DNA of 691 nucleotides from Escherichia coli (GCF_003334815.1 NZ_QOWO01000121.1), one strand, 5' to 3'; shown: positions 1 through 691, counted from the stretch's first letter. The notes: generated from the sequence alone by a model not told the origin. Program-made: numbers and translations.

Positions 1-38
1 GCCAGCGGCAGGCCGCGATGGTCGCAGTGGTACAGGTG
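1..38 (-). other. Probable N-terminal edge of the 'RHS repeat-associated core domain' ([13 protein letters not shown]…), continuing beyond the left window edge
   Basis: Translation of minus-strand codons 218-230 gives [13 protein letters not shown], a YD-like motif (Y-H-C-D-H-R-G-L). In my recollection of E. coli Rhs proteins this immediately precedes …EYDEWGNLL…GLYYNRHRYYDP…DPIGL, the end of the conserved core. Domain assignment is by recollection of the family consensus, not an HMM run. Confidence 0.55.
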
Positions 39-691
39 GATTTTTCGCGCCGGCGTGTACACCGGGTCCATCTGGTTTTGCATCTGCTCCACCGTCAGGC
101 CGCACGATGCCAGCCAGCGGCGGCTTTCCTCACTCACCCGGTCAGCCAGGATTTCACTTTCCAGCCGGTCGAGCATCTGCACCAGCACCGGCGGGAACAC
201 CACACTGCCACCGTCTTCGCCGCCGGACTGCTGAAGGGTATCCGCCAGGCTGCGGCGCTGCGTTTTCGCCAGCTCACCGGTGGCGGTTTCAACCCTGATG
301 AGTGGCGTGAAGCTCCCCGGCTGATAAATCGTCTGGATGCGGGTTCTGTCGTTCTGTATCGTGGTCAGGCGGTCGCCGTCCCAGCCGTACCAGGTCACTT
401 GCGGTTTCCGTGACAGCGACATCCAGCCCGTCAGGTCCCGTTCACGCCGCCATACCCGTTTTGCCACCCTGCGGCCCAGCGGGTCGTAAAGATAGCGACT
501 TTCGACCAGCGGCTCTGCATATTGTGTCCGCGTGTAGTGCACCAGCCGGTGCTGACTGTCGTAATGGTACCGGTGGGTGCGCTCATCATCCGTGCGGATA
601 ACCCCTTCCGGGATGAGGTCGGTTTTCTCTGTCAGCCTGCCGTGACGGTCATACCGGTAAAGATAGTGCGCGTCACGGGCGATACGGTTAT
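1..691 (-). CDS. rhs: Rhs-family YD-repeat protein, conserved core region (internal fragment, truncated at both window edges; codons in frame from + coordinate 689 down to 3, last 2 nt form a partial Ala codon)
   Basis: Seen in sequence: the minus-strand frame is open over the full window (229 codons, no stop), whereas the other frames are interrupted. The translation contains repeated YD-type motifs ([57 protein letters not shown]) matching the Rhs/YD-repeat consensus (Y-x-Y-D-x-x-G-R-L). Third codon positions are strongly G/C-biased in this frame. Recognition from memory, not a database search: the peptide is near-identical to the E. coli K-12 Rhs core (RhsA/B/C type). The paralog (rhsA/B/C/D or an orthologue in another enterobacterium) cannot be assigned from 691 nt of conserved core, so the symbol is the generic family name. 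Confidence 0.9.
354..395 (-). other. YD-repeat motif-encoding segment ([14 protein letters not shown]) within the Rhs CDS
   Basis: Direct translation of minus-strand codons 99-112; Y-G-W-D-x-x-(D)-R-L-T variant of the YD motif. Confidence 0.65.
453..497 (-). other. YD-repeat motif-encoding segment ([15 protein letters not shown]) within the Rhs CDS
   Basis: Direct translation of minus-strand codons 65-79; good match to the Y-x-Y-D-x-x-G-R consensus. Confidence 0.8.
531..569 (-). other. YD-repeat motif-encoding segment ([13 protein letters not shown]) within the Rhs CDS
   Basis: Direct translation of minus-strand codons 41-53; Y-x-Y-D…R-L pattern, degenerate (no Gly). Confidence 0.65.
627..665 (-). 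other. YD-repeat motif-encoding segment ([13 protein letters not shown]) within the Rhs CDS
   Basis: Direct translation of minus-strand codons 9-21; matches the YD-repeat consensus Y-x-Y-D-x-x-G-R-L-(T/I). Confidence 0.75.

Follow-up and report, generated by a model that had tools for sequence, protein, structure and literature searches.

Which strand of this stretch of Escherichia coli DNA codes for protein, and does the coding sequence belong to an intact gene? The stretch, analysed over its full length of 691 nt and referred to below as the window, carries three ORFs of at least 60 aa, all of them on the plus strand. Our analysis indicates, with near certainty, that it is an internal segment of an E. 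coli rhs core of the RhsA/B/C subfamily, encoded on the minus strand from position 689 to position 3 and located in either an intact gene or an orphan fragment, and that the plus-strand ORFs are non-coding.

Coding strand and reading frame

Six-frame translation of the 691-nt window yields a single frame that is open throughout, on the minus strand (positions 3–689, 229 codons, no stop), and it runs off both ends. The other five frames are all interrupted, with 11, 5 and 1 stops in plus-strand frames 1–690, 2–691 and 3–689, respectively, and 6 and 11 stops in minus-strand frames 691–2 and 690–1. The initial annotation, which named 689 to 3 as the only frame open over the entire window, was correct on this point. 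It also described the frame as having neither a start nor a stop inside the window, which is true of stops (and of a bounding stop, which is absent) but not of starts, as 14 in-frame ATG or GTG codons are present. The GC content of the three codon positions in this frame is 0.66, 0.45 and 0.76, a pattern typical of a GC-rich coding frame.

The frame is missing from the list of ORFs because it runs off both window ends, and the lister omits ORFs that extend past the ends of the sequence. At the 60-aa threshold the list consists of ORFs 18–413 (131 aa), 107–298 (63 aa) and 410–601 (63 aa), all on the plus strand and all antisense to the open minus-strand frame; at a threshold of 20 aa, two further short ORFs appear on the minus strand in other frames (134–292 and 431–589). 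Both the omission of the true frame by a caller that needs delimiting codons and the antisense position of all three listed ORFs had been anticipated. A gene that spans the whole of a short window is thus invisible to a stop-delimited ORF lister, and antisense shadow ORFs are listed instead.

Family assignment

The translation of the minus-strand frame aligns along its entire length (residues 1–229) to positions 941–1169 of the 1261 positions of the NCBIfam model NF041261 (RHS_core), with an E-value of 1.5e-145 and a score of 486.8 bits; the alignment is colinear and ungapped at its ends. The score is below the whole-protein cutoff of 2000 bits because only 229 of the 1261 model positions (18%) are present. 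The full-length rhsC product of strain EBJ001, whose gene holds an exact copy of the window, covers positions 1–1261 of the same model with 2650 bits. The YD-repeat model TIGR01643 exceeds its cutoff of 15.8 bits with a score of 24.1, and has its best match at positions 525–593 of the minus strand (residues 33–55). A weaker second match, to RHS_repeat, lies at positions 618–662 of the minus strand (residues 10–24) and holds the motif YRYDRHGRL (residues 11–19); YD dipeptides occur at residues 13, 43 and 68. Pfam profiles gave weak matches to the 229-aa fragment, with E = 0.044 for RHS_repeat and E = 0.014 for RHS over its first 13 model positions. The latter match marks the start of the PF03527 'RHS protein' domain (positions 3–41, minus strand), of which the window edge leaves the first 13 residues; in the full orphan protein described below this domain is found with E = 1.8e-14. 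The profile check suggested by the initial annotation therefore gave a positive answer with the NCBIfam models and an indecisive one with Pfam.

Compared with the Rhs proteins of E. coli K-12, the translation is identical to YbfO (100%) and shares 99.1% of residues with both RhsC and RhsA, 98.7% with RhsB and about 80% with RhsD and RhsE. It corresponds to residues 927–1155 of the 1397-aa RhsC, to residues 5–233 of the historic 477-aa YbfO ORF and to residues 34–262 of the 506-aa partial protein of the PGAP annotation. Full-length alignment to Rhs proteins on the minus strand, with no family match for the plus-strand ORFs, was the outcome that the initial annotation had expected. The RHS_core match, the YD-repeat score above cutoff and complete DNA identity to annotated rhs genes establish the product as the YD-repeat/Rhs protein proposed there. 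In the window, a search against Rfam (E ≤ 1) returned only two matches at chance level, a trypanosomatid snoRNA (19.3 bits against a gathering threshold of 47) and Rev44 (12.1 bits against 178), and a scan of both strands found no promoter-like or terminator-like sites.

Megablast against 5426 complete E. coli genomes found the window DNA in 3885 of them, at 17411 places in total (median 5, maximum 9 per genome). Many of these places are 100% identical and fall within features whose annotation reads rhsC, RHS element core protein or RHS repeat-associated core domain-containing protein. In K-12 MG1655 the ungapped DNA identity is 99.4% to ybfO, 99.3% to rhsC, 98.6% to rhsA, 98.4% to rhsB, 77.3% to rhsE and 77.0% to rhsD, and the five mismatches to rhsC are at window positions 39, 60, 76, 88 and 222. 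All exact copies that we inspected are at the rhsC locus, which is flanked by kdpFABC/ybfA and ybgA/phr. By all of the defining features that fall inside it and can be tested, the window fits the E. coli rhs core family, and the features beyond its edges are present in loci with exact copies; it is an ordinary piece of this well-known toxin gene family, and nothing in it departs from known biology.

Selection on the Rhs frame and its antisense ORFs

Selection was examined by comparing the window with K-12 rhsD and rhsE (about 77% nucleotide identity) and calculating dN/dS by the Nei-Gojobori method. In these comparisons, 98–100 of the 157–159 differences fall on third positions of the minus-strand frame. 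Amino-acid identity is 80% in the Rhs frame, compared with 49–53% in the frames of the plus-strand ORFs. Likewise, dN/dS is 0.13–0.14 in the Rhs frame, as opposed to 1.7–1.8 in the frame of ORF 18–413 and 2.9–3.0 in the frame shared by the two 63-aa ORFs. Among close copies of the window, 17 of the 22 variable sites are third positions of the Rhs frame.

These data bear on whether the open minus-strand frame could have arisen by chance in GC-rich non-coding DNA, or could be a relic that has no coding history. Stops are few in GC-rich DNA, and when the window was shuffled by mononucleotide 5000 times, 37 of the shuffles (0.7%) contained a fully open frame. Such an origin would not account for the RHS_core match, for the third-position substitution bias with dN/dS of 0.13 across paralogues that are 23% divergent, or for the openness of the Rhs frame in all 11 copies examined. 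The family match and the selection pattern against the paralogues refute the chance or relic reading, to which we assign a negligible probability, and leave the Rhs frame as a genuine coding frame.

In the same comparisons, plus-strand frame 1–690 has a deceptively low dN/dS of 0.25–0.29 despite its 11 stops, an artefact that arises because it shares its third codon positions with the Rhs frame. A low dN/dS is therefore insufficient on its own to pick the coding strand. The openness of a frame is also an insufficient guide: in rhsD and rhsE the antisense frame that contains ORF 18–413 is open over all 691 nt, so the argument from the only open frame fails there and the selection test is the real discriminator.

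The most plausible candidate for a real coding gene antisense to rhs would be the 131-aa ORF at positions 18–413 of the plus strand, whose codons are in phase with those of the Rhs frame. This ORF is intact in all copies of the RhsA/B/C type, its frame is fully open in rhsD and rhsE, and it is represented in public protein sets by a cluster of 103 members and by a gene call on contig JWHN01000116.1. Against this, it matches no NCBIfam family (E ≤ 1), and its product retains 52–53% identity to the corresponding frame of rhsD and rhsE, with dN/dS well above one, where the Rhs frame holds 80%. In rhsD and rhsE its ATG start is replaced by GTG and its stop is lost, and neither strand of the window shows a promoter-like site. 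The Rhs frame changes at synonymous sites about as fast under the ORF (dS of 1.05) as outside it (1.10), which argues against a second, antisense constraint, as such a constraint would depress synonymous change.

The length of the ORF follows from the codon usage of the Rhs frame, because its own frame can stop only opposite an Rhs-frame TTA, CTA or TCA codon. These codons occur 0, 0 and 1 times, respectively, among the 229 codons of the Rhs frame, and the TGA stop of the ORF (positions 411–413) is the complement of the sole TCA (Ser) codon. We consider it very improbable that a plus-strand ORF is a real antisense gene, and find it just as hard to credit that ORF 18–413, although kept open in every rhs copy examined, is a translated overlapping gene inside the Rhs core. 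The two 63-aa ORFs (107–298 and 410–601, plus strand) are spurious: their starts are replaced by GCG in rhsD and rhsE, they match no family in NCBIfam at E ≤ 1, and their exact sequences are absent from the protein collection searched. None of the three plus-strand ORFs shows purifying selection in its own frame, a lowered synonymous rate in the sense frame or a conserved start and stop. All three are non-coding by-products of Rhs codon usage, and ORF 18–413 is an antisense shadow of the rhs gene.

Wrong-strand entries in protein databases

The exact 131-aa sequence is present in the public protein collection, in the 103-member cluster mentioned above. The listed members that carry names are all 'hypothetical' or 'uncharacterised' proteins of E. 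coli or Shigella and form one 90% cluster that corresponds to the same DNA. The cluster includes the UniRef entry A0A0K4TWS5_ECOLX, and the listing also shows a variant of 188 aa from Shigella sonnei. Just one recorded contig, JWHN01000116.1 (GCA_000806175.1), has the exact sequence; there the gene is called at locus positions 8001–8396 of the plus strand, inside an orphan rhs fragment, with no Rhs-frame gene called over the ORF. A run of Ns interrupts this orphan, and the contig does not match the window exactly over its full length. Among cluster members on contigs of up to 4 kb, the rhs frame may have been broken by contig ends or gaps.

These entries are wrong-strand calls on one and the same rhs DNA and do not constitute independent evidence for a gene; more distant relatives of the ORF would likewise be expected to be rhs sequence translated from the opposite strand. 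The initial annotation had named conserved homologues of a plus-strand ORF as grounds for abandoning the minus-strand gene; homologues do exist in a formal sense, in the form of this cluster, but they are copies of the rhs DNA itself. Its warning that annotation from the ORF list would yield spurious hypothetical proteins has already come true, as the 131-aa ORF has been deposited about 100 times as a 'hypothetical protein'. The wrong-strand error to which a short window is prone is thus already present in public sets of E. coli and Shigella proteins.

A core repeat at the rhsC locus

The whole window (positions 1–691) lies within a direct repeat of about 1.05 kb that is common to full-length rhsC and the orphan fragment downstream of it. 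The left end of the repeat is about 265 nt beyond the window and its right end about 95 nt beyond, and the two copies are spaced 1871 nt apart. On the left, it ends at the PxxxxDPxGL motif (PISNIDPLGL, residues 1238–1247 of RhsC), and the tips past this motif are unrelated. On the right of the window, an intact gene would be expected to continue the Rhs core (…TGRLTGVHTTAANLDIRIPYATDPAGN…), whereas in an orphan the homology would break about 95 nt out and be followed by the end of ybfB.

Exact copies of the window were found in four contexts. In EBJ001, one copy is inside full-length rhsC (WP_162664796.1), at residues 927–1155 of 1397. In PG20180053, H9Ecoli and EBJ001, a copy is inside an N-terminally truncated orphan, downstream of rhsC-ybfB and upstream of ybfC. 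In MT102, it is inside an orphan with a different tip, annotated as 'polymorphic toxin type 34' and accompanied by a HEAT-repeat gene. In EC11 (NZ_CP060938.1), it is the only copy and belongs to a full-length chimera followed directly by ybfC. This chimera (locus positions 5268–9467, window copy at 6001–6691) is RhsC-like over its first ~1238 residues, while its last ~480 residues are those of the ybfO-type orphan with 4 mismatches; the rhsC tip and ybfB are absent. The EC11 arrangement could be either a product of recombination across the ~1.05-kb repeat or the ancestral state that preceded tip displacement in the model of Jackson et al. 2009 (PMC2935791).

The tips and putative immunity genes at these loci form the pairs rhsC tip with ybfB, orphan tip with ybfC, toxin-type-34 tip with the HEAT-repeat gene, and chimera with ybfC. 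At four of the loci with orphan copies, the orphan has no N-terminus, lies downstream of a main rhs gene of the same clade, shares a near-identical core with it and has an immunity gene of its own. The best match of the window in MG1655, ybfO, is annotated as a pseudogene that lacks its N-terminus (RefSeq, EcoCyc-style annotation). The Rhs frame of the orphan is open for 516 codons, and its first ATG, which begins MWPD and continues into NRIARD..., is 4 codons upstream of the window, which places the historic YbfO start 12 nt beyond position 689. A literature search on the name ybfO returned almost only unrelated papers.

Two of the strains show further differences from MG1655 at this locus. 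In MT102 (NZ_CP034953.2, locus positions 2669–6788), the orphans carry tips and immunity genes of the MG1655 rhsA type (with the HEAT-repeat yibA-like gene) and of the rhsB type (a DUF4329 tip with yhhH), which suggests that rhs elements at different loci have undergone exchange or rearrangement. PG20180053 has the same gene order at the rhsC locus as MG1655 and the serotype O16:H48, which we take to be that of K-12. When its two copies of the window (locus positions 9001–9691 and 10872–11562) were compared with those of MG1655 (7001–7691 and 8872–9562) over window positions 39–630, the PG20180053 orphan agreed with rhsC at positions 447, 453, 498 and 630, and the rhsC of this strain had the ybfO base at position 222. 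This reciprocal-looking pattern suggests gene conversion between the repeats or an assembly or polishing mix-up within them.

Intact gene or orphan fragment

Since the window lies wholly inside the repeat, none of its bases is diagnostic of an intact or an orphan context. We lean slightly towards the possibility that the window comes from a ybfO-type orphan, a silent fragment that would have neither a native translation start nor an export domain; this refines, rather than replaces, the assignment to the rhs core. Exact copies reside in the orphans of PG20180053, EBJ001, H9Ecoli and MT102, and the closest MG1655 sequence is the ybfO pseudogene. In the match list, which gives the best place in each genome record, about 15 of the best 25 matches with 100% identity fall under partial features named 'RHS repeat-associated core domain' or toxin type 34, and 11 carry the names rhsC or RHS element core protein; those of the 25 that we opened, three orphan copies and one intact gene, agreed with their feature names.

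The bases of the window at positions 39, 60, 76 and 88 are also of the orphan type: the haplotype G39, C60, T76, T88 is found in the orphan copy of four, and in the main rhsC copy of one, of the five two-copy genomes in a sample picked from exact matches. At the same time, two full-length genes, rhsC of EBJ001 and the only copy in EC11, are 100% identical to the window, and the genomes inspected are few and were chosen from among the exact matches. On balance, an orphan cassette appears somewhat favoured as the source, and an intact rhs gene (rhsC or a chimera) has a probability that falls a little short of even.

The initial annotation had called the minus-strand frame the real gene. The Rhs coding frame bears this out, but intactness has to be qualified, as exact copies occur in intact genes and in the pseudogene-annotated orphan alike, and the term is perhaps overstated because that orphan is N-terminally truncated. 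A sequence from a multi-copy repeat (median of 5 places per genome, two of them at one locus) can be placed, or called intact, only with the help of its flanks.

Predicted structure and role of the encoded segment

Residues 1–137 of the window protein align to residues 868–984 of Tse5 of Pseudomonas aeruginosa (8cp6; E = 7e-12), in the late part of its β-barrel, and residues 214–229 align weakly to Tse5 residues 1016–1030. Residues 1–137 also align to the Rhs core of Salmonella bongori (8qjb/c/d). Overall sequence identity to these solved proteins is low. Between the two aligned segments is a stretch of about 75 residues without YD motifs (residues ~138–213; positions 51–278, minus strand) that has no aligned counterpart in the solved shells of Tse5 (8cp6) and the S. 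bongori Rhs core; the Tse5 segment at that place has about 30 residues, some 45 fewer. The YD-free stretch is also the least conserved part between rhs clades, with dN of 0.22 against 0.055 for the YD part in the comparison with rhsD.

In Tse5, the YD-repeat barrel is located between an N-terminal plug (residues 48–124, DUF6531) and a C-terminal plug (residues 1092–1168), whose DPxGx19DPxG aspartyl protease cleaves off the encapsulated toxin (PMC10684867). A Pfam search of the N-terminal 400 aa of RhsC, in which the orphan was scanned as well, identified the DUF6531 plug in RhsC (E = 4.8e-18) together with a weak, partial match to PAAR (E = 0.18, model positions 51–69 of 70). Further along, RhsC has a match to TIGR03696 at residues 1170–1247, which ends with the PISNIDPLGL motif, and carries the protease motif DPIG-x18-DPLG(L); this autoprotease motif, DPxGx18DPxG(L), is ~80–90 codons beyond the left edge of the window. 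In the orphan the corresponding motif reads DPIG-x18-DSMG(L), with the aspartate kept and the proline replaced (residues ~330–354; PG20180053 locus positions 8271–9788, minus strand). No vgrG, which would point to a PAAR-Rhs effector delivered by a T6SS, is annotated in the examined flanks of the rhsC locus.

From homology and the literature, we infer the shell fold, autoproteolysis, toxin delivery and mechanism of recombination as follows. The window would encode the last hairpins of the YD-repeat shell, the YD-free stretch and the approach to the C-terminal plug. By analogy with the solved Rhs proteins, the β-shell would enclose the variable C-terminal toxin, which the autoprotease of the C-terminal plug would cleave off and which would be delivered to neighbouring cells, while the product of the small downstream gene would confer immunity to it. 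The orphan may represent a promoter-less, N-terminally truncated cassette, in which the window sequence would serve mainly as a homology arm for displacement or re-attachment of tips by recombination.

Relation to known rhs systems

The closest known counterparts of the window are K-12 RhsC (b0700, NP_415229.1), together with its EBJ001 allele, and K-12 ybfO (b0703). The former share strand, frame and locus with the window, and their DNA is 100% identical in EBJ001 and 99.3% identical in MG1655. The translation of ybfO is 100% identical over the window, as is the DNA of its counterparts in PG20180053, H9Ecoli, EBJ001 and MT102, with 99.4% in MG1655. In contrast to RhsC, ybfO is annotated as a pseudogene without an N-terminus and has DSMG instead of DPxG as its second protease motif. 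The reading frame, the family match, the sequence identities, the pattern of selection, the repeat and the surroundings of the copies were all observed directly here.

Core fragments attached to displaced tips have been described by Jackson et al. 2009 (PMC2935791), and tip displacement and re-attachment by recombination have also been modelled by Poole et al. 2011 (PMC3150448). In Salmonella Typhimurium LT2, a main rhs gene is followed by an orphan that shares its core, and by recombination between the shared core segments the main gene acquires the tip of the orphan (Koskiniemi et al. 2014, PMC3967940). The rhsC locus of E. coli EC11 has a fused arrangement like that of LT2, which in E. coli is known only as a natural variant, as opposed to the recombination documented in Salmonella LT2 (PMC3967940). 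As rhs genes, YD-repeat shells, orphan tips and recombination through shared cores are already well described, the window adds no new biology, and its value is practical, in exposing annotation artefacts and the difficulty of placing repeats.

Shorter pieces of the same core are also found. In MG1655, the yibJ pseudogene downstream of rhsA-yibA matches the first 207 nt of the window with 96.1% identity (locus coordinates 7198–7403). It represents a displaced tip with a much shorter core fragment and illustrates the variable length of the fragments described by Jackson et al. 2009 (PMC2935791). In strain RM9387, the sole match to the window is likewise partial and covers positions 1–207.
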